From assembly GCF_030384885.1 (NCBI RefSeq), contig NZ_CP128613.1: a DNA stretch of 64,000 bases; one strand, 5' to 3'. This document shows positions 1 to 16,662 of the stretch, in pieces. Under the pieces are notes generated by a model that was not told the origin of the DNA, did not search any database, and saw nothing but the letters and a program-made list of their open reading frames with translations. The DNA is from Escherichia coli. GTDB lineage: Bacteria; Pseudomonadota; Gammaproteobacteria; Enterobacterales; Enterobacteriaceae. The translations under genes and the position numbers were made by a program. Position 1 is the first letter of the stretch, and each line of letters opens with the position of its first letter.

Positions 1-195
1 TCAATGAGCTACATGAAAGACTTGTGGAGCGAGGAAGAGAAAAAAGAATTCGCTAAACTGGATCAAATGGGCGTGAAAGTCTACAAGGTTGATAAAGCAC
101 CGTTTATCGAGAAAGTGCAGCCGATGTACGCAGCCTTTGCTAAGGAAAACCCTGCTCTCGCCCCAATGCTAACTGATATTCAGGCGACTAAGTAA
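1..195 (+). CDS. 3' fragment of a periplasmic solute-binding protein, TRAP-transporter DctP-like C-terminus; gene starts upstream of the window
   Basis: Frame is open to base 1 (track ORF 4..195 is only the part after an internal Met). C-terminal sequence (GVKVYKVDKAPFIEKVQPMYAAFAKENPALAPMLTDIQATK) resembles TRAP SBP C-termini; followed by a hairpin terminator. Not the gene I expect here in K-12. Confidence 0.4.
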   Translation, partial: SMSYMKDLWSEEEKKEFAKLDQMGVKVYKVDKAPFIEKVQPMYAAFAKENPALAPMLTDIQATK

Positions 196-257
196 TTATC
201 TTAATAGGGCTGCTTATTGTGGCCCTTAGCAATATCTACAAGCGCTCGCTATAAAAG

Positions 258-286
258 CAAAACGCCGACCAATGGTCGGCGTTTTT
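258..286. terminator. Bidirectional intrinsic terminator between the left-edge gene and rplI
   Basis: GC-rich hairpin cgccgacc-aatg-gtcggcg flanked by A-run on one side and TTTTT on the other. Confidence 0.6.
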
Positions 287-306
287 ACGTCTCGTTGAAT
301 AACGAA

Positions 307-768
<462 letters not shown>

Positions 769-797
769 TCAAAGTCGTATTAATGGACCGTGACCGA

Positions 798-1344
<547 letters not shown>

Positions 1345-1350
1345 CAGAAA

Positions 1351-1764
<414 letters not shown>

Positions 1765-2073
1765 TTATTCAGCCTCCTGTCTGGGTCAGCCGAATCCCGG
1801 GGAGGCAAGGAACGTGTTAAAGGTCGGCTGAAAAATGACGCGTTATAGTACTGACATACCCCGCTAAACTCAAGGCCAGCCGACAAATAAATCTCATCTT
1901 TCACCAAATCGTACTAACACGCTGATTTGAAGTTCATCACACTTCATCATGGTGTTTTTTTGAACAACTGCATCAGAAATGGTCACCATCCACTTCTTTA
2001 TCATTGATTAAAATTAAATCAGAAGATCACCACAAGAGGAGAGCACACAAAGTCAGCCGTCGAGGAGGTATCT

Positions 2074-2349
2074 ATGTTCAGCCGTGTTTTAGCCCTTCTG
2101 GCTGTGCTTTTGCTAAGTGCAAATACATGGGCAGCCATTGAAATTAATAACCACCAGGCCAGAAATATGGACGATGTGCAAAGCTTAGGCGTGATTTATA
2201 TCAATCATAATTTCGCCACTGAAAGTGAAGCACGTCAGGCATTAAATGAAGAGACAGATGCGCAGGGCGCAACGTACTACCATGTGATTCTGATGCGGGA
2301 ACCGGGGAGTAACGGCAATATGCACGCCAGCGCGGATATTTATCGCTAG
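2074..2349 (+). CDS. yjfY: DUF1471 (YhcN/BhsA/McbA-like) small secreted protein
   Basis: 91-aa ORF with signal peptide and DUF1471-type C-terminus; RBS GAGGAGG upstream. Confidence 0.9.
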   Translation: MFSRVLALLAVLLLSANTWAAIEINNHQARNMDDVQSLGVIYINHNFATESEARQALNEETDAQGATYYHVILMREPGSNGNMHASADIYR

Positions 2350-2389
2350 CACCAGGTATAACCAACGAAACATTGCCATAGTTTGCTTT

Positions 2390-2414
2390 GCCCCCTTTTC
2401 AGGGGGCTTTTTTT
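2390..2414 (+). terminator. Intrinsic terminator after yjfY
   Basis: Hairpin gccccc-ttttca-gggggc followed by TTTTTTT. Confidence 0.7.
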
Positions 2415-2477
2415 GAAAAACGGCTGCGGACTTAGACCAGTTATCTCCCGAAGAAGGAAATCTCCGCAGCGCGTGTT

Positions 2478-3164
2478 TTACTTCTGCCCGTAATAGGCGT
2501 TGGGACCGTGCTTACGCATGAAGTGTTTATTCATGAGATAGCTGTCGATGTGATTCAGTTGCGGGTTAATGCCGCGGGCAATCCACGCCATTTTCGCCAC
2601 TTCTTCCATCACCACCGCGTTATGCACCGCATCGTGAGCATCTTTCCCCCAGGCGAATGGCCCGTGCTGATACACCACAATTCCCGGCGTATGCAGCGGC
2701 TCGGCGTCACCCAGCGTTTCGATAATCACTTTGCCAGTGTTTAGCTCGTATTCCCCCTGCACTTCTTCTTCGCTTAACCCGCGCGTACACGGGATATCGC
2801 CAAAGAAGTAGTCAGCGTGCGTGGTGCCTAATGCCGGGATCGCCAGCCCCGCCTGCGCCCATGCGGTGGCATGCGTGGAATGGGTATGGACAATGCCGCC
2901 AAGCGACGGATAACGACGGTAGAGTTCAAGATGCGTCGCAGTGTCGGAAGACGGACGATACTCCCCTTCCACCACCTTGCCACTCATATCAACCACCACC
3001 ATATCGTTCGCTTTCATGCTTTCGTAGGCAATGCCGCTGGGCTTGATCACCACCAGCCCGCGTTCGCGGTCAATGGCGCTGACGTTACCCCAGGTAAAGG
3101 TCACCAGCCCGTAGCGCGGCAGATCCATATTGGCTTCAAATACCTGCTGTTTTAGCTTTTGCAT
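2478..3164 (-). CDS. ulaF: L-ribulose-5-phosphate 4-epimerase
   Basis: 228-aa ORF, class II aldolase/epimerase; last gene of ulaABCDEF. Confidence 0.95.
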
Positions 3165-4018
3165 TATGCCGCCTCCACCATGCCGGCTTTAGCCATGCGC
3201 GCTTTCACCCAATCACGCGCTTTCGCCACTTCTGCCGCCGGGTCTTCCGCCGTTTCGCTCCACATCTCAATCAGGTACGGCCCGCAATAACCACTCTGTT
3301 TGAGCGTTTCGAAGCAACGTTCGAAATCCACTACACCTTCGCCAAACGGCACGTTTTTGAAGACGCCTGGTTTAGTGTCTTTCACATGCACCGCAACGAT
3401 GTGCCCGATTCCGGCCTGCAACTCCATCTGCACGTCGTTGTCCCACGCCGACAAGTTGCCGATATCCGGGTAGAGCTGGAACCACGGGTTGTTAAGATAG
3501 TGCGCGTAACCCAGCGCCTTGCTGATGGAGTTCATCAACGGGTAATCCATGATCTCCATTGCCAGCGTCACCTGCGCGCGGCTCGCCATCTCAACGCTCT
3601 CTTTCAGGCCGTCACGGAAACGACGACGCGTTTCGTTATTGGCTTCCTGATAGTAAACGTCGTAGCCCGCCAGTTGGATCACGCGAATACCGACATCCTG
3701 GGCGAACTGGATAGCTTTGCGCATAATCTCCAGCCCCTGCGCCCGCACTGCGTCATCTTCGCTGCCCAGCGGGAAACGGCGATGAGCAGAAAGGCACATG
3801 GACGGCACGCGCACGCCGGTTTCAACAATCGCGTTCACCAGCGCCAGACGCTGCTCGCGGCTCCAGTCAAGGCGCGAGAGGCGATCGTCCGTTTCATCTA
3901 CCGACATCTCGACAAAATCGAAGCCTAACGTTTTTGCCAGTTGCAGCCGTTCCAGCCAGCACTCCCCGGTGGGGAGCGCTTTTTCGTAGATGCCAAGCGG
4001 GATTTGTTTGGACAACAT
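3164..4018 (-). CDS. ulaE: L-ribulose-5-phosphate 3-epimerase
   Basis: 284-aa ORF; start overlaps ulaF region, operon order. Confidence 0.95.
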
Positions 4019-4027
4019 ATCCGCTCC

Positions 4028-4678
4028 TTAGCCCCACAGCTCGGCGATGGAACGTTTGAACTGACGCGCGGCTTCAACCGGAGAAGCGGCATCACGGATA
4101 CTACGCCCCGCGATAAACACATGAATCGGAATGCCTTTGAACAGCGGCAGGTCTTCCAGCGCCAGGCCACCGGTGACGGTGACTTTGAAGCCCATATCGG
4201 AAAGACGTTTGATCGCGGTGATATCCGCTTCGCCCCACGCCACGCCTGCGGCCTGCGCGTCACGGCTGCGGTGATAAACCACCTGCTGGATACCTGCGTC
4301 GCGCCACTGCTGCGCCTGTTCCCAGGTCCAGTAACCGGTCAGTTCGATCTGCACGTCGCCATTAAACTCTTTTGCCACGTCCAGCGCGCCTTTGGCGGTG
4401 TTGATATCTGCACAACAAATCACGGTCACCCAGTCAGCGTTGGCTTCAAAGCACATACGAGAAAGGATTTTGCCCGCATCGGCGATTTTGGCGTCTGCCA
4501 GCACGATTTTGTGCGGATAAAGCGCTTTCAGATCGCGAACCGCACGCACACCTTCGCCCACGCACAGAATGGTGCCCACTTCGATAATGTCGACTTCTTC
4601 GGCAATCAGGCGAGTAGTTTCGTAGGCGCTAGCCATAGTCTGGTTGTCCAGCGCGACTTGCAACATCGGTAATGACAT
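4028..4678 (-). CDS. ulaD: 3-keto-L-gulonate-6-phosphate decarboxylase
   Basis: 216 aa from [12 protein letters not shown]...; track ORF (267 aa) is an upstream in-frame extension into ulaC. Confidence 0.93.
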
Positions 4679-4691
4679 TTTCAATTCCTTC

Positions 4692-5156
4692 TTAAGCAGC
4701 CGCGTTGGTGCGGTCAATGAGATCCAGGACTTCCTGCTCAGTACGGCAGGCGCGTAAACGGTCGAAATTCTCTTCATCTTCAAACAGGTTGACGATCTGC
4801 ATGATGCCCACTTCCTGATGCGTGTTGGCATCGACCGCCGCCATCGTGATGAGGATATCCACCGGGTCGTTATCTTCGTGGTTGAACTCCAGCGGCTTTT
4901 TCAGCGTCACCAGTGCAAAACCGGTTTTCTTAACGCCCTCTTCCGGGCGACCATGCGGCATTGCCAGGCCCGGTGCGAGCACAAAGTACGGGCCGTGTTG
5001 TTCAACCGCATCCAGAATCGCCTGGTAGTAACGCGGCTCTACCACATCTGCCGCCACCAGCAGGTCAACGCCGATTTTCACTGCGTCCTGCCATGTCTCA
5101 ACTTCAGCCTGCAGACGGATAGATTTATTCTCCGCCAGCGAATCACGTAATTTCAT
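4692..5156 (-). CDS. ulaC: Ascorbate-specific PTS enzyme IIA
   Basis: 154-aa ORF. Confidence 0.95.
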
Positions 5157-5165
5157 AGCGCGCCC

Positions 5166-5471
5166 TTACTTCACGTCCTGCGGGAAATGTTCTTTGATCA
5201 CTTCCAGCAGTTTCGGGCCAAAATCGGCAGGAGAGAGCATGTTGCGCACGCCAACCACGTATTTATTGCCGGTCACGGTTATTTCGCCCGCGATGTGCGT
5301 AGAAGCGATGATGATATCCGCGCCGCTCAACTCGCTTTTGTATTCACCAACCGCGCAGCTGTTTACCGTGTGGTCGATGTTCGACTGGGTTAAAAACTGG
5401 TCCACTTTCATTTTCATGATCATGGAACTGCCTTGTCCGTTACCACACACAGCCAGAATACGTACGGTCAT
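5166..5471 (-). CDS. ulaB: Ascorbate-specific PTS enzyme IIB
   Basis: 101 aa from [16 protein letters not shown]...; track ORF has 2 extra N-terminal codons. Confidence 0.93.
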
Positions 5472-5486
5472 AATCAAAACTCCTTA

Positions 5487-7238
<1,752 letters not shown>

Positions 7239-8303
7239 ATGAGTAAAGTGAAAAGTATCACCCGTGAATCCTGGATCCTGAGCACTTTCCCGGAGTGGGG
7301 TAGCTGGTTGAATGAAGAAATTGAACAAGAACAGGTAGCTCCTGGCACATTCGCGATGTGGTGGCTAGGCTGCACCGGGATCTGGCTGAAATCTGAAGGA
7401 GGCACCAACGTTTGCGTCGATTTCTGGTGTGGTACTGGCAAACAAAGTCACGGTAACCCACTAATGAAACAGGGTCACCAGATGCAGCGCATGGCTGGCG
7501 TGAAAAAACTGCAACCGAACCTGCGTACCACCCCATTTGTTCTTGATCCGTTTGCGATTCGCCAGATCGACGCGGTACTGGCAACTCACGATCACAACGA
7601 TCATATCGACGTCAACGTCGCTGCTGCCGTGATGCAGAACTGCGCTGATGACGTGCCATTTATCGGGCCGAAAACCTGCGTGGATTTGTGGATTGGCTGG
7701 GGTGTGCCGAAAGAACGTTGCATCGTGGTCAAACCGGGCGATGTCGTTAAAGTGAAAGACATTGAAATTCATGCCCTTGACGCGTTTGACCGTACTGCAC
7801 TGATCACTTTGCCTGCCGATCAAAAAGCGGCTGGCGTACTGCCAGACGGCATGGACGATCGCGCGGTAAACTACCTGTTCAAAACGCCGGGCGGTACCCT
7901 GTATCACAGTGGCGATTCCCACTACTCTAACTACTATGCGAAGCACGGTAACGAGCATCAGATCGACGTGGCATTAGGTTCATACGGTGAAAACCCACGT
8001 GGTATCACCGACAAAATGACCAGTGCTGATATCCTGCGTATGGCAGAAGCGCTGAATACAAAAGTGGTTATCCCGTTCCACCACGACATCTGGTCAAACT
8101 TCCAGGCCGATCCGCAAGAGATCCGCGTACTGTGGGAGATGAAAAAAGATCGCCTGAAGTATGGCTTCAAGCCGTTTATCTGGCAGGTCGGTGGCAAATT
8201 TACCTGGCCGCTGGATAAAGACAATTTCGAGTACCACTATCCACGTGGTTTTGACGATTGCTTCACCATTGAACCGGATCTGCCGTTCAAGTCGTTCCTG
8301 TAA
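7239..8303 (+). CDS. ulaG: L-ascorbate-6-phosphate lactonase (metallo-beta-lactamase fold)
   Basis: 354 aa from [12 protein letters not shown]...; HxHxDH motif (ATHDHNDH). Confidence 0.95.
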
Positions 8304-8410
8304 TCTGTCGTTTATACCGGATGGCGTGGAGAAGTTCGCGCTATCCGGCGTAGTATTTCCTGGCTATTTCAAATATCATCTAAAAAAATCAAATTTTATC
8401 GGAATAGCTC

Positions 8411-9166
8411 ATGACTGAAGCACAAAGACATCAAATTCTCCTGGAAATGCTCGCACAATTGGGCTTTGTGACCGTTGAGAAAGTCGTTGAGCGTCTGGGA
8501 ATTTCGCCTGCTACCGCTCGACGCGATATCAATAAACTTGACGAAAGCGGCAAACTGAAAAAAGTGCGCAATGGCGCAGAAGCCATTACCCAGCAGCGCC
8601 CACGCTGGACGCCGATGAATCTGCATCAGGCGCAGAACCATGATGAAAAAGTACGTATCGCTAAAGCAGCCTCGCAGCTGGTTAATCCGGGCGAAAGCGT
8701 CGTCATCAACTGCGGTTCCACCGCGTTTCTGCTTGGGCGGGAAATGTGTGGCAAGCCAGTGCAAATCATTACTAATTATCTACCGCTGGCGAATTACCTG
8801 ATCGATCAGGAGCATGACAGCGTGATTATCATGGGCGGCCAATACAACAAAAGCCAGTCCATCACCTTAAGTCCACAGGGCAGCGAAAACAGTCTCTATG
8901 CCGGGCACTGGATGTTTACCAGCGGCAAAGGACTGACCGCAGAAGGGTTGTATAAAACCGATATGCTGACGGCAATGGCAGAGCAGAAGATGTTGAGCGT
9001 GGTAGGGAAACTGGTGGTACTGGTTGATAGCAGTAAGATCGGCGAACGTGCGGGGATGCTCTTTAGTCGTGCAGATCAAATCGATATGCTGATCACCGGC
9101 AAAAATGCTAACCCGGAAATCCTGCAACAACTGGAAGCGCAAGGGGTCAGCATTCTGCGTGTTTAA
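8411..9166 (+). CDS. ulaR: DeoR-family repressor of the ula regulon
   Basis: 251-aa ORF with N-terminal HTH and sugar-phosphate-binding domain. Confidence 0.95.
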
Positions 9167-9912
9167 AGATGCTGCTGGAAAAATGTCACGGCAGCATCTA
9201 ATGCCTCAGGCGTAATGCGGTGACGCACGCCTGGCTGCCATGAACAGGTTAGCAGTTTATCCCGTCCCGTCTCGATTAAGGCCTGCTGCAAACGTAGTGA
9301 TTCGTCGGCAGGCACGACGTCATCGTCAAGGCCATGCCACAGCAGTAGAGGTCTGTCACCAAGTTGTTCCAGATGGTTTGTCGCTTCCCACTCTGCCAGC
9401 GGCGCGACAATGTTATTGAATTCATTCTGCTGTGCTGCCGTTTCAGGTATCAGCGGTGGAAACAGTGAACGGGCGAGCGATGTAAAATAGCCCGATCCCA
9501 TCATGCTGGCGGTACATTTCACCGTGGGGTGGCGAGCGGTAATTCCCAGTGCCGTCATCGCGCCCATCGACGCGCCACCGACTGCCAGACGGTCAGCAAG
9601 CAGCCAGTTTTCTTCGGCTATTGCCGCACGTAAGGTAGTGAATTCCTGCATACTTTGTAGCAAAATTTGCCAAAATTGATATAACCGCCGCGCTGCGTCG
9701 CCCCTAAAACGGCTACCGTGATCGGGCGCATCCGGCATGATCACCCGCAAACCAGCCTGCGCCAGCGCAACGGCAAAATAGCTATACACCAGACTGGACG
9801 AAGTAAAGCCGTGATAAAAAATCACGCACGGTAACGGGGTATCTTTTTGCCCGACAGGATAAGCATGAAGAACGGGAATATCTGCCAGCACGCGCGAGTC
9901 TATTTCAATCAT
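9163..9912 (-). CDS. yjfP: Alpha/beta-hydrolase esterase
   Basis: 249-aa ORF; GGASMG nucleophile-elbow-like motif; convergent with ulaR, 4-nt overlap. Confidence 0.9.
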
Positions 9913-10093
9913 CTGTCTCTCCTTTTTGTCTGGTATGACATGAAGAAATCCTTAGCACAAGTTTCTGCTGGCGGTATTAGTTCATAATGTTGAGATGTGG
10001 GTTACGCTTTCGTCACGTTTTCATTCGAAAATCGCGTACCAGGTAACAATTCGGGAACATTCCCCCAAAGTTAAATTAATAAGGCACTACACT

Positions 10094-10423
10094 ATGGTTA
10101 GCAGGAAACGTAATAGCGTTATTTACCGGTTTGCCAGTTTATTATTGGTGTTGATGTTAAGTGCCTGTAGCGCACTGCAAGGTACGCCACAGCCAGCACC
10201 GCCAGTAACGGACCATCCGCAAGAGATTCGCCGCGACCAGACGCAAGGGTTACAGCGAATAGGTAGCGTAAGCACGATGGTTCGGGGTTCTCCGGATGAC
10301 GCATTAGCAGAAATCAGAGCGAAAGCTGTCGCTGCAAAAGCTGATTATTACGTTGTCGTCATGGTGGACGAAACCATCGTGACAGGACAGTGGTATTCAC
10401 AAGCTATTTTATACCGTAAATAA
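10094..10423 (+). CDS. bsmA: Biofilm/stress lipoprotein, DUF1471 family
   Basis: 109 aa from MVSRKRNSVIYRF...; lipobox LSAC; track ORF has a 33-codon upstream extension. Confidence 0.88.
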   Translation: MVSRKRNSVIYRFASLLLVLMLSACSALQGTPQPAPPVTDHPQEIRRDQTQGLQRIGSVSTMVRGSPDDALAEIRAKAVAAKADYYVVVMVDETIVTGQWYSQAILYRK

Positions 10424-10571
10424 ATCAGACAACTTATACAGCCAGCTTTACATTGCTTTGCGTCCCTATGCGTTTACCTGTGCACAATAAATTACCAGCT
10501 GGAAGCTCGGGCGTTTATTACCGCGATGGAATGCCCTGCAACATGTGGGGAAACGAAAAATGGAGCTGATG

Positions 10572-10847
10572 ATGAAACAATTACTTGCCTCACCCTCACT
10601 GCAATTAGTGACTTATCCTGCGAGCACCACGGCACAGTCTGCAGAATTCGCCAGTGCTGACTGCGTGACGGGCCTGAATGAAATAGGTCAGATCTCGGTT
10701 AGCAATATTTCAGGGGATCCGCAGGACGTGGAACGTATCGTGGCGTTAAAGGCCGATGAACAAGGTGCGTCATGGTACCGCATTATTACCATGTATGAAG
10801 ACCAGCAGCCTGATAACTGGCGTGTACAGGCGATACTGTATGCGTGA
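10572..10847 (+). CDS. yjfN: DUF1471 family small periplasmic protein
   Basis: 91 aa from MKQLLASPSLQL...; alternative upstream starts exist in frame (track ORF from 10545). Confidence 0.85.
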   Translation: MKQLLASPSLQLVTYPASTTAQSAEFASADCVTGLNEIGQISVSNISGDPQDVERIVALKADEQGASWYRIITMYEDQQPDNWRVQAILYA

Positions 10848-10849
10848 GT

Positions 10850-10905
10850 GTCATCCGCAGCAAATGAACAATGCCGGATGCGACACCTGTGCCTTATCCG
10901 GCCAA
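10850..10905. repeat. REP (repetitive extragenic palindromic) element
   Basis: gccggatgcgacac...gccttatccggcc imperfect palindrome, typical enterobacterial REP; between convergent yjfN and aidB. Confidence 0.6.
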
Positions 10906-10996
10906 CAGTTCCTGAAATTTCATTGTGTTAGTTGATAACACGTAATGCTGCTGTTGCCATTATAAGACGCGCTAGCATCACATCTGGCTGACTCGT

Positions 10997-12622
10997 TTAT
11001 AAACATACTCCCCCCGTCGCCCGCAGCAATAAATCATTCTGGATCTGCTCTGACAACCGCACGCCGCCGCGCGTATCAAACATCATCTGACACCACGCCT
11101 GCGCCATTGGCGGAGAGGCATATTTCAACATTTGCGCGCCGCAACCCAGCAGGAATAGCTGACGAGTAATCTCTCGCCCCATTTCTTCAGCTGGCTTACG
11201 CAGTTGCTGCTGCAAACGACGAACCGCGCGATCAAAATAGCGATCCTGCCCTTTCACTTCCATAAACGCTTCCGACAGTAAGTCGTATACACCCGCCTGC
11301 TTATTAAGAACGCGCAATACATCCAGGCACATAATATTGCCAGAACCTTCCCAGATGCTGTTCACCGGCATTTCCCTGTAAAGCCGCGGCAGCTCGCTCT
11401 CCTCGCAATAACCAATACCGCCCAGCACCTCCATCGCTTCGGCCACAAACGGCATACCACGTTTGCAGATAACCAATTTCGCCGCAGGCGTAAATAAACG
11501 CGCCCACAGGGCTTCTTTGGCATCGGCACGCCGGTCCCACGCTCGCGCAAGACGAAACAGCAACGCCGTTTGACCTTCAAGCTGAAGTGCCATGCGACTT
11601 AAGACATGACGCATAAGGGGTTGTTGGATCAATGGATTACCAAAAACATGGCGTTGATGGGCATGATAAATCGCCAGCGAAAATGCACGGCGCATCATGG
11701 CATGGCTACCCAGGGCGCAATCAAAACGCGTCATCCCACCCATTTTCAGGATCAGACGAACTCCTTCCCCTTCCTGCCCCAACAACCAGCCAATGGCATC
11801 CTGAAACTCCACTTCGCCGCTGGCGTTAGAGCGATTACCCAGCTTATCTTTCAGCCGCTCGAGGCGAATCGCGTTGCGTTGCCCGTCAGGCAAAAAGCGC
11901 GGCACAAAAAAGCAGGACAAACCGCCAGTGGTCTGCGCCAGTACCAGATGCGCATCGCTTTGTGGCACCGAGAAAAACCATTTATGCCCCACCAGCCGAT
12001 AAGAGCCATCGTCCAGACGCTCTGCGCGGGTAGTGTTGCTCATCACATCGGAACCGCCCTGCTTTTCCGTCATGCCCATGCCAATCAACAAACCGCGTTT
12101 TTGCCCACCTGGCAATAAGTGGGAATCGTAGCGATCGCTCAACAGCGGCGTGGTCCAGTCCTGAAACGGCGCGGGTAACATCTGTAACAGCAATGGCGTG
12201 GCGGCAAAGGTCATGGTTATCGGACATAACGACCCTGCCTCAACCTGTGCGTGCAACATAAAACGCGCCGCTCGCGCCACAAATGCGCCGGAGCGAGCGT
12301 CTTCTTCCCAGGCCAGATTGTGTACCCGATTGGTACATAACGCCTGCATCAGCAGGTGCCAGGCGGGGTGAAAACGCACATCGTCCAGACGGCGTCCTTG
12401 CGCATCGTAGCGCAATAATTCGGGCGGATTCACATTCGCCAGTCGCCCCAGTTCAAGGGATTCAGCCGTTCCTAACTGCTGACCAATACTGGCGAGAAAA
12501 TCGCTATCCCAGCCAGCACCTTCACGCGTTACCGCTTCGCAGAGCGCGCCATCAGACAGGTATAAGTTGCTGTTATTTAATGGTATAGGTTGATTAAAAA
12601 CGGTGTGAGTTTGCCAGTGCAC
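10997..12622 (-). CDS. aidB: Acyl-CoA dehydrogenase-family adaptive-response protein AidB
   Basis: 541 aa beginning at GTG (..VHWQTHTVFNQP); track ORF starts 6 codons further upstream. Confidence 0.93.
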   Translation of the reverse strand: MHWQTHTVFNQPIPLNNSNLYLSDGALCEAVTREGAGWDSDFLASIGQQLGTAESLELGRLANVNPPELLRYDAQGRRLDDVRFHPAWHLLMQALCTNRVHNLAWEEDARSGAFVARAARFMLHAQVEAGSLCPITMTFAATPLLLQMLPAPFQDWTTPLLSDRYDSHLLPGGQKRGLLIGMGMTEKQGGSDVMSNTTRAERLDDGSYRLVGHKWFFSVPQSDAHLVLAQTTGGLSCFFVPRFLPDGQRNAIRLERLKDKLGNRSNASGEVEFQDAIGWLLGQEGEGVRLILKMGGMTRFDCALGSHAMMRRAFSLAIYHAHQRHVFGNPLIQQPLMRHVLSRMALQLEGQTALLFRLARAWDRRADAKEALWARLFTPAAKLVICKRGMPFVAEAMEVLGGIGYCEESELPRLYREMPVNSIWEGSGNIMCLDVLRVLNKQAGVYDLLSEAFMEVKGQDRYFDRAVRRLQQQLRKPAEEMGREITRQLFLLGCGAQMLKYASPPMAQAWCQMMFDTRGGVRLSEQIQNDLLLRATGGVCL

Positions 12623-12705
12623 TGTGTCTCCCTCCATCAATGGCAGTCACCATTAGTATGGTCACTGCCACGGATTCCTGACAGAAAGAGATTGCTAAAA
12701 CATTC

Positions 12706-13869
12706 TTAGCCAGCAATATAATGCGGAACGAAACGTGAGGTGTCTTTGGTGATCAGCGTGTTATCTTCACGGATCCCCATTCCGCACGCTTCATCATCGA
12801 CAATCCAGCTACCAATGAGTGTGTAGCTATCGCCAAACCGTGGTAGAGGTTGAAATGCCTGGTAGATCATCGGTTCATCGGCGTAATCACCCTCAGCGTG
12901 GTCAACGACGTTATTCTGACCATCGAAAATGGTGACGTTACCGCCCTCGCGTGAGTAGATCGGTTTACGCACATAGCTTTCGCCAGCGGCAATCTGCGGT
13001 TTTTCGCCATCAAACCAGGATGCAAGTAGGTTAGGATGACCAGGAAAGAAGCGCCAAAGCAGCGGCATTAACCCTTTGTTGCTCAAGATACTTTTCCATA
13101 ACGGCTCCACCCATTGCTCGCGGCGCTTGCGCAGCAGCGGACCGTTATCGTCACGCATCATCCATTCCAGCGGATACAGCTTAAATGCACGCTGGATGAC
13201 ATTATCATCAAGATCGGTCAGTACACCGCCGACGCCCAAACCGAGATCTTCAATGTAGATAAACCGTGACTCCTGCCCAGCCTGCTGAGCGCAGTCCTGC
13301 AAGTACAGCACAGTACTCCTGTCTTCGTCGGTATCCTGACAACAGCAGAAATAAAACGGTTCCCGACTGTAAAGCTCGCTAAAACGCGAAATCAGGCGTT
13401 CCTGAATGGCATTGTACTGATCGGCATCACGCGGAATAATGCCGCTACGCCGCGCATCTTCCAGCCACAGCCACTGGAAATAAGCCGATTCATACAACGA
13501 GGTTGGCGTATCGGCGTTGTACTCCAGCAGCTTCACCGGCGCATTGCCACACCAGGCAAAATCCATCCGACCATACAGCGAAGGATCGCGTGCGCGCCAG
13601 CTTTCAGCGATCACATCCCAGTACAGCGGTGGGATCGCCAGTTGCGTCAGGATCTCTTCGTCTTGAACCGCACGATCCACCACCTCAAGGCACATCTGAT
13701 GCAGTTCCGCAGTTGGTTTTTCGATCTGCTCTTCTATCTGACGCAGAGTAAAGCGGTAAGCCCGACTCTCATCCCAATAGATTTCATTGTCGATGATATG
13801 AAAGTCGAAACCGTTGTCGGCGGCGATCTGGTCCAGATCCCGTCGTACAGGAACGTTGTGTCTCAGCAT
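12706..13869 (-). CDS. yjfC: Glutathionylspermidine synthase-family (ATP-grasp) protein
   Basis: 387-aa ORF; last gene of yjfKLMC. Confidence 0.9.
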   Translation of the reverse strand: MLRHNVPVRRDLDQIAADNGFDFHIIDNEIYWDESRAYRFTLRQIEEQIEKPTAELHQMCLEVVDRAVQDEEILTQLAIPPLYWDVIAESWRARDPSLYGRMDFAWCGNAPVKLLEYNADTPTSLYESAYFQWLWLEDARRSGIIPRDADQYNAIQERLISRFSELYSREPFYFCCCQDTDEDRSTVLYLQDCAQQAGQESRFIYIEDLGLGVGGVLTDLDDNVIQRAFKLYPLEWMMRDDNGPLLRKRREQWVEPLWKSILSNKGLMPLLWRFFPGHPNLLASWFDGEKPQIAAGESYVRKPIYSREGGNVTIFDGQNNVVDHAEGDYADEPMIYQAFQPLPRFGDSYTLIGSWIVDDEACGMGIREDNTLITKDTSRFVPHYIAG

Positions 13870-14935: not shown

Positions 14936-15595
14936 TTAACCAATAATATGAAGTGATGTCAGTGGGATATCAACACCCAGTGCGCGCGAAAATAACCACT
15001 CCGGCTCGCCGAGATCGTTAAAAGATTCCTCACCATTTAACAGCAAATATTCACAGGTATCTTCGGTCACCTGCCGTTCATAGCCCATGGTAAAATTATG
15101 CACTTCCCATTTGGCGTGGTTTTGATTTTCAACTTTTTCCAGCATATAGACGGGTTCGATATTTCCCGGTTCTTCACTGTTAAAAAATCGCTGCCAGCGT
15201 TTTTCCTGCCAGTTTAATGTCATTGCCCCCATCGCTTTGGCGTTGATCGCTTCGCGCCAGTGGCTCTCTTTGCTGATACCGTAGCTCTCTTCATAGACAA
15301 AGAGCTTTATATCATCAATGTCATCAATATCTTCGCCGCCGGTGGTATTGATTTGCAGAAATTCATCGCCCGAAGTGTAGTAGCGGAAAATCTGACTACC
15401 GCCGCCCAGATCGATGTGGCTGACAGCGGCTACCGTAAATTCTTCACCCGGCAGCGCAATCAGCAATTCATCTTCCAGCAAACGAAACGCTAACGTGTCG
15501 AGCGTAAAGCCGCTATTGAGATGAAGTCCCAGTGGGCCACGTGCGATTGCAGGTTTATCATCCTTACCAAACAGACGCTTGAAAAAACTTGTCAT
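14936..15595 (-). CDS. yjfK: DUF2491 protein
   Basis: 219-aa ORF; start codon overlaps stop of the upstream RCK-like ORF (ATGA). Confidence 0.9.
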   Translation of the reverse strand: MTSFFKRLFGKDDKPAIARGPLGLHLNSGFTLDTLAFRLLEDELLIALPGEEFTVAAVSHIDLGGGSQIFRYYTSGDEFLQINTTGGEDIDDIDDIKLFVYEESYGISKESHWREAINAKAMGAMTLNWQEKRWQRFFNSEEPGNIEPVYMLEKVENQNHAKWEVHNFTMGYERQVTEDTCEYLLLNGEESFNDLGEPEWLFSRALGVDIPLTSLHIIG

Positions 15596-16347
15596 ATGCT
15601 TCCCTCAATGTCCTGCCATGCCACTTCTTCAGCCAAAATACGGTTATTGCCAATAAGATGCAGCCACATACCGCCTTTAACTTCCGTTGCAATGACTGGA
15701 TTCAGTTCCATTCCCCTACCATTTTTACAACTGCTTATTCCCAGGACGGTGGCATCATGATGAAGTTTCATATAATGCATCAATGCGCCATAACGCATTG
15801 AGGTAACCCGTTCAGGAATCGGTAAAACAAACCCCGTATCCCCCAGCATTGGATTCATAATCGATGCCACTGATTGAGATGAACCGGGATCTTGTATTGA
15901 ACGGGAAAGTTGTTCTGCTGAAATATTTCGCACTATTTCAATACGTTGACAATGAACCTCTAATAAACGAGCGTAGCGTTCATCTTCCAGATAAGCGACG
16001 ATATGGCATCTTTCAGGAATAAAATCCGCCAGGGATAGTGCGGTCGTGAACGTCTGCTCATCTGTTTGCGAAAAGATGATGACACTTTGGCAATTTGCCA
16101 GTCCCATGCGGGTATGTTCATGCGGATCATTAAAATTACTAATACGAATGAAATCGACCCAATTATTTCCAGGCATCGGATGTTGAATATCATCCCGCTC
16201 ACACAAAAGTACCCGGCCAAATGCTCTTCGGGAATCAAACAACAATAATGAAATCATCTTTTCAGTCTGATGCCCGCGCCATCCAATGACCAGCATATGG
16301 TTGCGCAAATTGCTGTAGTCGCCCATTCCCGTCATTCCTTTCGCCAA
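15592..16347 (-). CDS. RCK/TrkA-N-like cytoplasmic regulatory domain protein, apparent C-terminal half of a Kch/MthK-type K+ channel; start ambiguous (TTG at 16347, ATG at 16335 or 16326)
   Basis: N-terminus HMLVIGWRGHQTEKMISLL fits the Rossmann beta1-Gly-loop-alphaA pattern of RCK/CASTOR-type domains; ORF is in the same frame as the pore ORF, 2 codons after its TAA. AAGGA lies 9 nt before the ATG at 16326. Not a gene I recall from K-12. Confidence 0.55.
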   Translation of the reverse strand: MAKGMTGMGDYSNLRNHMLVIGWRGHQTEKMISLLLFDSRRAFGRVLLCERDDIQHPMPGNNWVDFIRISNFNDPHEHTRMGLANCQSVIIFSQTDEQTFTTALSLADFIPERCHIVAYLEDERYARLLEVHCQRIEIVRNISAEQLSRSIQDPGSSQSVASIMNPMLGDTGFVLPIPERVTSMRYGALMHYMKLHHDATVLGISSCKNGRGMELNPVIATEVKGGMWLHLIGNNRILAEEVAWQDIEGSI

Positions 16348-16353
16348 TATGTC

Positions 16354-16662
16354 TTACACTAATGCAATGACTTTTCCCATTAAAGCGCCAAATAAACCAA
16401 CACTCACAGGAATCTGCCAGAGCGCTGTGAACAGACGTCCCCCCACCGTTTGGGGTGTGATATCACCAAACCCCAGCGTTGATCCCACAACCGAGCAGTA
16501 ATAAATAAAATTACTAAGTTGTCCTACCAACGCCTCTTCATGCAACGCAGTTAACACCAGATAACAAAACAGATACTGTCCTGTAAATAATCCAGTCAAT
16601 GCCGGCCAGGTAAGCCTGGAAAGGTGACGTCGGCAGGTTTTAATGATCCATGAGAAGAACAT
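16354..16662 (-). CDS. Two-TM K+-channel-like pore subunit (TM1, pore helix, TLGFGD filter, TM2), apparent N-terminal half of an interrupted channel gene
   Basis: 102-aa ORF: TM1 PALTGLFTGQYLFCYLVLTAL, pore helix and filter NFIYYCSVVGSTLGFGDITP, TM2 GGRLFTALWQIPVSVGLFGALMGKVIALV; ends at TAA directly after TM2. ATG overlaps yjfJ stop by 1 nt. Confidence 0.6.
   Translation of the reverse strand: MFFSWIIKTCRRHLSRLTWPALTGLFTGQYLFCYLVLTALHEEALVGQLSNFIYYCSVVGSTLGFGDITPQTVGGRLFTALWQIPVSVGLFGALMGKVIALV

Follow-up and report, generated by a model that had tools for sequence, protein, structure and literature searches.

Are the three short genes on either side of the ula ascorbate regulon and of yjfP in this Escherichia coli genome truly paralogs, and how did they come to lie so close together? 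A preliminary description, made from the letters of a 64,000-nucleotide stretch of DNA (the whole stretch analysed, hereafter the window), named them yjfY, bsmA and yjfN, and presented them as a small paralogous family of periplasmic stress and biofilm proteins that share a C-terminal motif of the DUF1471 type. The genes are as follows:

2074-2349, + strand: yjfY, 91 amino acids (open reading frame, and RefSeq 'DUF1471 family protein YjfY')
10094-10423, + strand: bsmA (yjfO), 109 amino acids (open reading frame, and RefSeq bsmA)
10572-10847, + strand: yjfN, 91 amino acids (open reading frame, and RefSeq 'DUF1471 family protease activator YjfN')

We consider, with a probability of about 0.95, that the three are orthologs of their namesakes in E. 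coli K-12 and represent three of the ten DUF1471 paralogs of E. coli, each made of a leader followed by a domain of about 55 residues. Their identity and family membership are already recorded in databases and in the literature, and we claim no new biology on this point; the result shows that small paralogous genes are recognizable from raw sequence.

Gene order and identity

Genes are arranged in the order rplI-rpsR-priB-rpsF (- strand), yjfY (+), ulaFEDCBA (-), ulaG-ulaR (+), yjfP (-), bsmA-yjfN (+) and aidB (-), with yjfY placed between rpsF and ulaF, a position that it shares with K-12. K-12 MG1655 has yjfY (b4199), bsmA/yjfO (b4189) and yjfN (b4188) arranged and oriented identically with respect to rpsF, ulaF...ulaR, yjfP and aidB. 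Only allelic differences separate the three genes from their K-12 counterparts, with slight differences in gene content elsewhere nearby. The bsmA product starts at an internal methionine (position 10094) of a 142-residue open reading frame (9995-10423, + strand), which yields 109 amino acids, and that of yjfN at a methionine (position 10572) within a 100-residue frame (10545-10847, + strand), which yields 91. The coordinates proposed earlier coincide exactly with RefSeq coding sequences of NZ_CP027579.1 (positions in the window being those of locus L001 minus 1101), and the gene names, the family assignment and the paralogy were all correct.

The window is ordinary E. coli chromosome. A megablast search of 5426 complete E. 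coli genomes found segment 9900-11000, which holds bsmA and yjfN, to be 100% identical to NZ_CP027579.1, from strain 2013C-4282. The same segment was found in 5424 of the 5426 genomes, and the yjfY region (1990-2430) in 5425. As a separate observation, at least 99% identity was reached in 11 of the 5424 genomes for the bsmA-yjfN region and in 84 of the 5425 for the yjfY region, nearly all others lying between 95 and 99% in both cases. Genomes this close are few, which indicates that the lineage of the source strain is poorly represented among complete genomes.

Membership in the DUF1471 family

Pfam assignment places all three proteins in PF07338, the YdgH/BhsA/McbA-like domain formerly called DUF1471, well over its gathering score of 27 bits: yjfY scores 71.6 bits (E value 5e-20), bsmA 56.9 bits (2e-15) and yjfN 63.3 bits (2e-17). 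The 55-position profile is matched end to end (positions 1-55 in yjfY and bsmA, 1-54 in yjfN). The domain was delimited by PF07338 in two of the proteins:

yjfY, residues 35-91: DUF1471 domain
bsmA, residues 53-108: DUF1471 domain, C-terminal

An N-terminal export leader and one C-terminal domain in some 90 residues, the usual DUF1471 layout, are found in all three (91, 109 and 91 amino acids) by hydropathy and regular expression, the YjfN leader being weak. When compared to NCBIfam models, bsmA matches the BsmA equivalog NF011433 at 152.7 bits (cut-off 100) over model positions 2-98 of 98, while yjfY and yjfN match models of paralogs only, under their cut-offs (BsmA model, 31.9 and 50.4 bits, respectively).

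Is this relationship visible in pairwise comparisons, as the preliminary description proposed to check? Only in part. Identity among the three proteins is 21-31%. BLASTP aligns bsmA and yjfN clearly (E value 4e-8, 30% identity across 87 residues) and yjfY and bsmA marginally (E value 1e-4, 27% identity), but gives no alignment of yjfY with yjfN at E values up to 100. The refutation test put forward earlier, the lack of significant pairwise similarity, misfires for this last pair because it is too strict for 55-residue domains at 20-30% identity, and their paralogy holds all the same. Homology of yjfY and yjfN is secured by the Pfam profile and by the intermediates bsmA, yhcN and ydgH. In phmmer searches of the 1163 six-frame open reading frames of at least 30 amino acids in the window, the two also retrieve each other at E values of 0.008-0.01, ahead of unrelated frames, each being the top or second non-self match of the other. 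Pairwise BLAST is therefore an unsafe refutation test for domains of this size and divergence.

Neither phmmer nor a hidden Markov model built from the three sequences found a fourth DUF1471 copy among the 1163 frames, the next match having an E value of 2.7. As these searches retrieve yjfY, bsmA and yjfN alone, the window holds exactly three copies.

All ten K-12 DUF1471 paralogs were located. The family was described as restricted to Enterobacteriaceae and as comprising some twelve paralogous subfamilies, of which E. coli has ten, at 20-40% identity between subfamilies (Eletsky et al. 2014, PMC4092069). Named YjfN homologs among the best 120 matches listed all come from enterobacterial genera.

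C-terminal motif and alignment of the paralogs

The C-terminal motif that first drew attention to these genes is real in each of them: yjfY ends in ...GATYYHVILMREPGSNGNMHASADIYR, bsmA in ...KADYYVVVMVDETIVTGQWYSQAILYRK and yjfN in ...GASWYRIITMYEDQQPDNWRVQAILYA. The spacing 'W/YY..I..M' by which it was described is approximate, the bsmA methionine lying one column off. Three columns are invariant among the aligned E. coli paralogs: the alanine of 'GA', the alanine three residues before the tyrosine, and the tyrosine of the penultimate region. The last residue varies, YjfN alone ending in alanine and the other aligned E. coli paralogs in Y-K/R (YdgH domain I is internal to its protein).

We noted a further difference in the loop that precedes the last beta-strand, which is about three residues longer in yjfN (10800-10826), bsmA (10373-10399), yjfY (2299-2325) and the YdgH domains, while yhcN, bhsA, ybiJ, mcbA, yahO and rclB do not have this longer beta-hairpin loop. 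The extra residues may represent a shared indel that marks a sub-group of the family.

Origin of the cluster

Three of the ten E. coli paralogs lie within 8.5 kb, an arrangement reached in 0.12% of random placements (P = 0.0012). The clustering is non-random. Another two paralogs, ybiJ and mcbA, are likewise 4 kb apart in K-12. Ancient local gene duplication is the most likely source of the yjfY, bsmA and yjfN cluster.

The case is clearest for bsmA and yjfN, which lie on one strand with 148 bp between them and probably arose by an old tandem duplication. In an all-against-all comparison, the best paralog of bsmA is yjfN (33.9 bits, the next reaching 21.9). Against this reading, yjfN itself scores no lower with yhcN (35.8 bits) than with bsmA (33.9 bits). 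The three corresponding DUF1471 subfamilies are found in Salmonella Typhimurium as YjfN (STM4378), YjfO (STM4379) and YjfY (STM4389), and the adjacency of yjfN and yjfO in Salmonella was already taken as a sign of expansion by duplication (PMC4092069). The spacing of these locus tags implies a layout matching that of E. coli, the pair being already present there as STM4378/4379. Judged by its scores, yjfY is a more distant relative: among the E. coli paralogs it matches yhcN best (36.2 bits), followed by ydgH domain I (33.1 bits) and bsmA (23.5 bits), and it forms no tight sub-clade with its neighbors.

Could all three genes descend from one series of local duplications, as a single clustered lineage that diverged past easy pairwise recognition? 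The tight spacing of three paralogs out of ten, the longer loop common to yjfN, bsmA, yjfY and the YdgH domains, and the matching arrangement implied for Salmonella are consistent with such an origin, and a neighbor-joining tree of the domain (59 columns) groups the same five members. The grouping of all five has a bootstrap value of 22%, however, and the absence of a BLASTP alignment between yjfY and yjfN, together with the closer match of yjfY to yhcN and ydgH domain I, leaves a single local triplication unsupported. We thus view one common series as possible but rather doubtful. In the same tree, yjfN groups with bsmA at 45% and yjfY with the ydgH domains at 56%. All relevant nodes stay under 60%, and dating of the duplications from this tree was dropped for that reason. 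An ancient local duplication, most visible in the bsmA-yjfN pair, is the reading that we retain.

Leaders and cellular location

The three products probably do not share one cellular destination, contrary to the uniform 'periplasmic' label that they had received. The leader of YjfY is strongly hydrophobic, with a 10-residue Kyte-Doolittle mean that peaks at 3.48. It reads MFSRVLALLAVLLLSANTWA/AIE and ends in TWA/A, the cleavage site (slash) being placed by eye. YjfY is probably a soluble periplasmic protein.

The N terminus of BsmA combines three basic residues, a hydrophobic core (2.89) and a lipobox LSAC with its cysteine at position 25, as seen by hydropathy and regular expression:

10157-10168, + strand: codons of the BsmA lipobox L22-S23-A24-C25 (regular expression [LVI][ASTVI][GAS]C, matched at residue 22)

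This protein is annotated in K-12 as 'putative lipoprotein BsmA', and a proline-rich linker of about 28 residues connects the Cys25 region to the DUF1471 domain. With such a lipobox cysteine, BsmA is a predicted lipoprotein, most likely tethered to a membrane, and the serine at position +2 points to the outer membrane as the probable destination under the Asp+2 rule. The 'stress and biofilm' role ascribed to the three genes is documented for bsmA only. PMC4092069 cites Weber et al. 2010 for an effect of YjfO/BsmA on biofilms formed under stress; the role given to the protein covers peroxide or stress resistance as well, and deletion of bsmA was reported to change biofilm and stress responses. 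YjfY and YjfN were listed as uncharacterized in 2014 (PMC4092069). YjfN is an activator of the DegP protease.

None of the other E. coli paralogs, ten in all, has a leader as weakly hydrophobic as that of YjfN (residues 1-23, 10572-10640), which scores 1.45 against at least 2.09 elsewhere. The leader of a Salmonella YjfN is more hydrophobic than that of E. coli (2.02 versus 1.45). We assume from the literature that YjfN is exported to the periplasm. A decay of the leader specific to E. coli was considered and rejected, weak hydrophobicity being a property of the whole subfamily: YjfN-type leaders from 105 clusters, covering many genera, have a median of 1.64 and a range of 0.62-2.36.

Conservation and expression signals

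Comparison with K-12 shows few changes in any of the three genes. The YjfY protein is identical over its 91 residues, with six nucleotide differences that are all synonymous; bsmA has three nucleotide changes and one substitution (K75R), and yjfN has six and one (A19T, in the leader). These zero, one and one amino acid changes for six, three and six nucleotide changes, mostly synonymous, argue for purifying selection. We conclude that yjfY, bsmA and yjfN are working core genes.

Ribosome binding and termination signals were sought around them:

2063-2067, + strand: Shine-Dalgarno sequence GGAGG, 6 nucleotides before the yjfY ATG (direct reading of the sequence)
2390-2414, + strand: strong hairpin GCCCCC-TTTTCA-GGGGGC followed by T7, resembling an intrinsic terminator, 3' of yjfY (terminator scan; 7 base pairs, of which 6 are G-C)
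10562-10565, + strand: GGAG, 6 nucleotides before the yjfN ATG

The annotated starts agree with the sequence; for bsmA, AAGG occurs 9 nucleotides before the ATG. The search for consensus sigma-70 promoters gave no match upstream of any of the three genes. Stress promoters often depart from the consensus, so that this lack means little.

Might one or more of these genes be decaying or non-expressed relics? Such a view could draw on the missing sigma-70 consensus, on the weakly hydrophobic leader of YjfN, and on the absence of an assigned function for YjfY in the literature consulted. We hold it to be very improbable in the face of intact reading frames whose regions occur in nearly all complete genomes (about 5424-5425 of 5426), changes from K-12 that are mostly synonymous, and good Shine-Dalgarno sequences at 6 nucleotides from yjfY and yjfN. 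In addition, other genera share the weak leader of YjfN, which reveals no local decay, and in published work, detailed below, yjfN responds with the Cpx iModulon while purified YjfN is active on DegP and DegQ.

Predicted fold

A profile of the three proteins matches the solved DUF1471 structures 2JNA, 2M2J, 2MA8, 4EVU, 2NOC and 2MA4 with E values of 3e-6 to 2e-3. We also modeled YjfN with AlphaFold2, using the paralog alignment as the multiple sequence alignment. The model has a mean pLDDT of 84.8, exceeding 90 at residues 40-90, and consists of a short helix (29-33), a strand (37-47), a long helix (50-63) and two further strands (68-76 and 82-90). Its top Foldseek matches in the PDB, all with a probability of 1.00, are 2M2J (YdgH domain I), 2JNA/2MA8 (SrfN) and 4EVU (YdgH domain III). 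The match to YdgH domain I has an E value of 1e-4 and a TM-score of 0.75 normalized to the target. The YjfN model therefore has the mixed alpha+beta fold of SrfN, YahO and the YdgH domains, to which BsmA and YjfY are linked via the sequence profile only.

The solved structures share with the YjfN model a Pfam family and an alpha+beta fold, with TM-scores of 0.75-0.77 (normalized to the target) and root mean square deviations of 2.1-2.5 Å. They differ in belonging to other paralogous subfamilies, at 19-26% identity, and in having neither the C-terminal alanine of YjfN nor the lipobox of BsmA. SrfN and SssB were linked to Salmonella virulence (PMC4092069).

A chance or compositional resemblance between non-homologous C termini, which the 21-31% identity and the missing yjfY/yjfN alignment might have suggested, is refuted and has a negligible probability given the full-length PF07338 matches (E values of 5e-20 to 2e-15), the lack of any other frame among 1163 in the window with an E value better than 2.7, the profile matches to solved DUF1471 structures and the agreeing predicted fold of YjfN.

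Next after the DUF1471 structures, the YjfN model retrieves RcsF (2Y1B and 2L8Y; for 2Y1B, an E value of 4e-3 and TM-scores of 0.47-0.49). RcsF is the sensor lipoprotein of the Rcs system, located in the outer membrane, and belongs, like BsmA, to the lipoproteins of the envelope-stress network. It lies outside PF07338, however, and has about 14% identity to YjfN. RcsF also has disulfide bonds, while DUF1471 proteins do not (PMC4092069). Judging from the model, the resemblance between RcsF and YjfN is one of fold only. This structural likeness of DUF1471 proteins to RcsF was already reported (PMC4092069, PMC12096828).

YjfN C terminus and the DegP protease

The mature N terminus of YjfN, AEFASADCVTGLNEIG, with the single cysteine Cys31, is invariant in 17 aligned orthologs. 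At the other end, the protein closes with ...AILYA:

10842-10844, + strand: GCG codon for the YjfN C-terminal alanine, Ala91 (from the sequence)

The last residue is alanine in 16 of the 17 aligned orthologs and valine in the remaining one. Among 112 YjfN-type clusters it is alanine in 85, and A, V, I, L or F in 99. Cys31 and the C-terminal alanine are kept in YjfN orthologs of Citrobacter, Salmonella, Klebsiella, Enterobacter, Kosakonia, Lelliottia and others, although the alanine is not universal. A Salmonella YjfN that is 80% identical to the E. coli protein shares both the AEFASADC and the ...AILYA features.

The C-terminal alanine of YjfN would contact DegP at its PDZ domain. The literature gives this terminus a function. 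In a preprint that cites Kim et al. (J Bacteriol 2018) on this point, YjfN is called a 'suicide activator' of DegP/DegQ, and the purified protein lets DegP and DegQ break down CsgA in vitro (bioRxiv 10.1101/2024.12.25.630354). The C-terminal alanine was reported to interact with DegP (PMC12096828). According to these sources, YjfN would engage DegP through its hydrophobic C-terminal alanine (...ILYA) and would activate the protease while being itself degraded, a property reported for the K-12 protein. Double mutants of ydgH with yjfN, bsmA or yhcN were reported to show no synthetic defect.

Is the last residue a switch of function in this family? One may imagine that YjfN (...YA) engages DegP and that paralogs ending in ...YK or ...YR(K) are blind to it, in which case bsmA and yjfN would form a two-part module for envelope quality control. 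Such a module would pair a membrane-tethered lipoprotein paralog with a soluble, self-consuming protease activator, both serving the same clients, for instance outer-membrane proteins. We regard this scheme as unlikely. No unifying mechanism has yet emerged for the DUF1471 family as a whole, and the contrast between the YjfN alanine and the basic termini of its neighbors is a cheap and testable handle on one.

Non-coding elements and variable neighbors

Between and around the two adjacent genes, we recorded the following elements:

10424-10571, + strand: bsmA-yjfN spacer, 148 bp between same-strand genes
10447-10461, - strand: CpxR-like box GCAAAGCAATGTAAA, with one mismatch to GTAAA-N5-GTAAA, 111-125 nucleotides upstream of the yjfN start
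10873-10902, strand not assigned: imperfect palindrome GCCGGATGCGACAC / GTGCCTTATCCGGC, in the interval where yjfN and aidB converge (inverted-repeat search)

The spacer contains no consensus promoter and no terminator on the + strand. The yjfN gene belongs to the CpxR iModulon (PMC7657598), and its co-expression with the envelope-stress regulon of Cpx makes the CpxR-like box suggestive. It serves as a lead only, being indistinguishable from chance by count: the window holds 5 such boxes against 2.9 expected, and 5 or more occurred in 22 of 100 shuffles. The palindrome downstream of yjfN resembles the REP consensus, and we call it REP-like on that basis.

Near yjfY, positions 1744-1828 on the - strand match the RpsF leader of Rfam (RF02893) at 110 bits, upstream of rpsF and adjoining the divergent yjfY promoter region. 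This leader is the only structured RNA that an Rfam scan of positions 1-13000 revealed near the genes.

Two differences in gene content from K-12 were observed in the vicinity. On one side, genes for a TRAP transporter permease and substrate-binding protein adjoin rplI (positions 1-195 and upstream; 1-1296 in L001), a place occupied in K-12 by yjfZ and the ytfA pseudogene. On the other, a 1071-bp gene for a 'potassium channel family protein' (15592-16662, - strand) lies between yjfK and yjfJ, where K-12 MG1655 has a 50-bp spacer alone, which indicates strain-variable content within the PspA-like yjfIJKLMC cluster.
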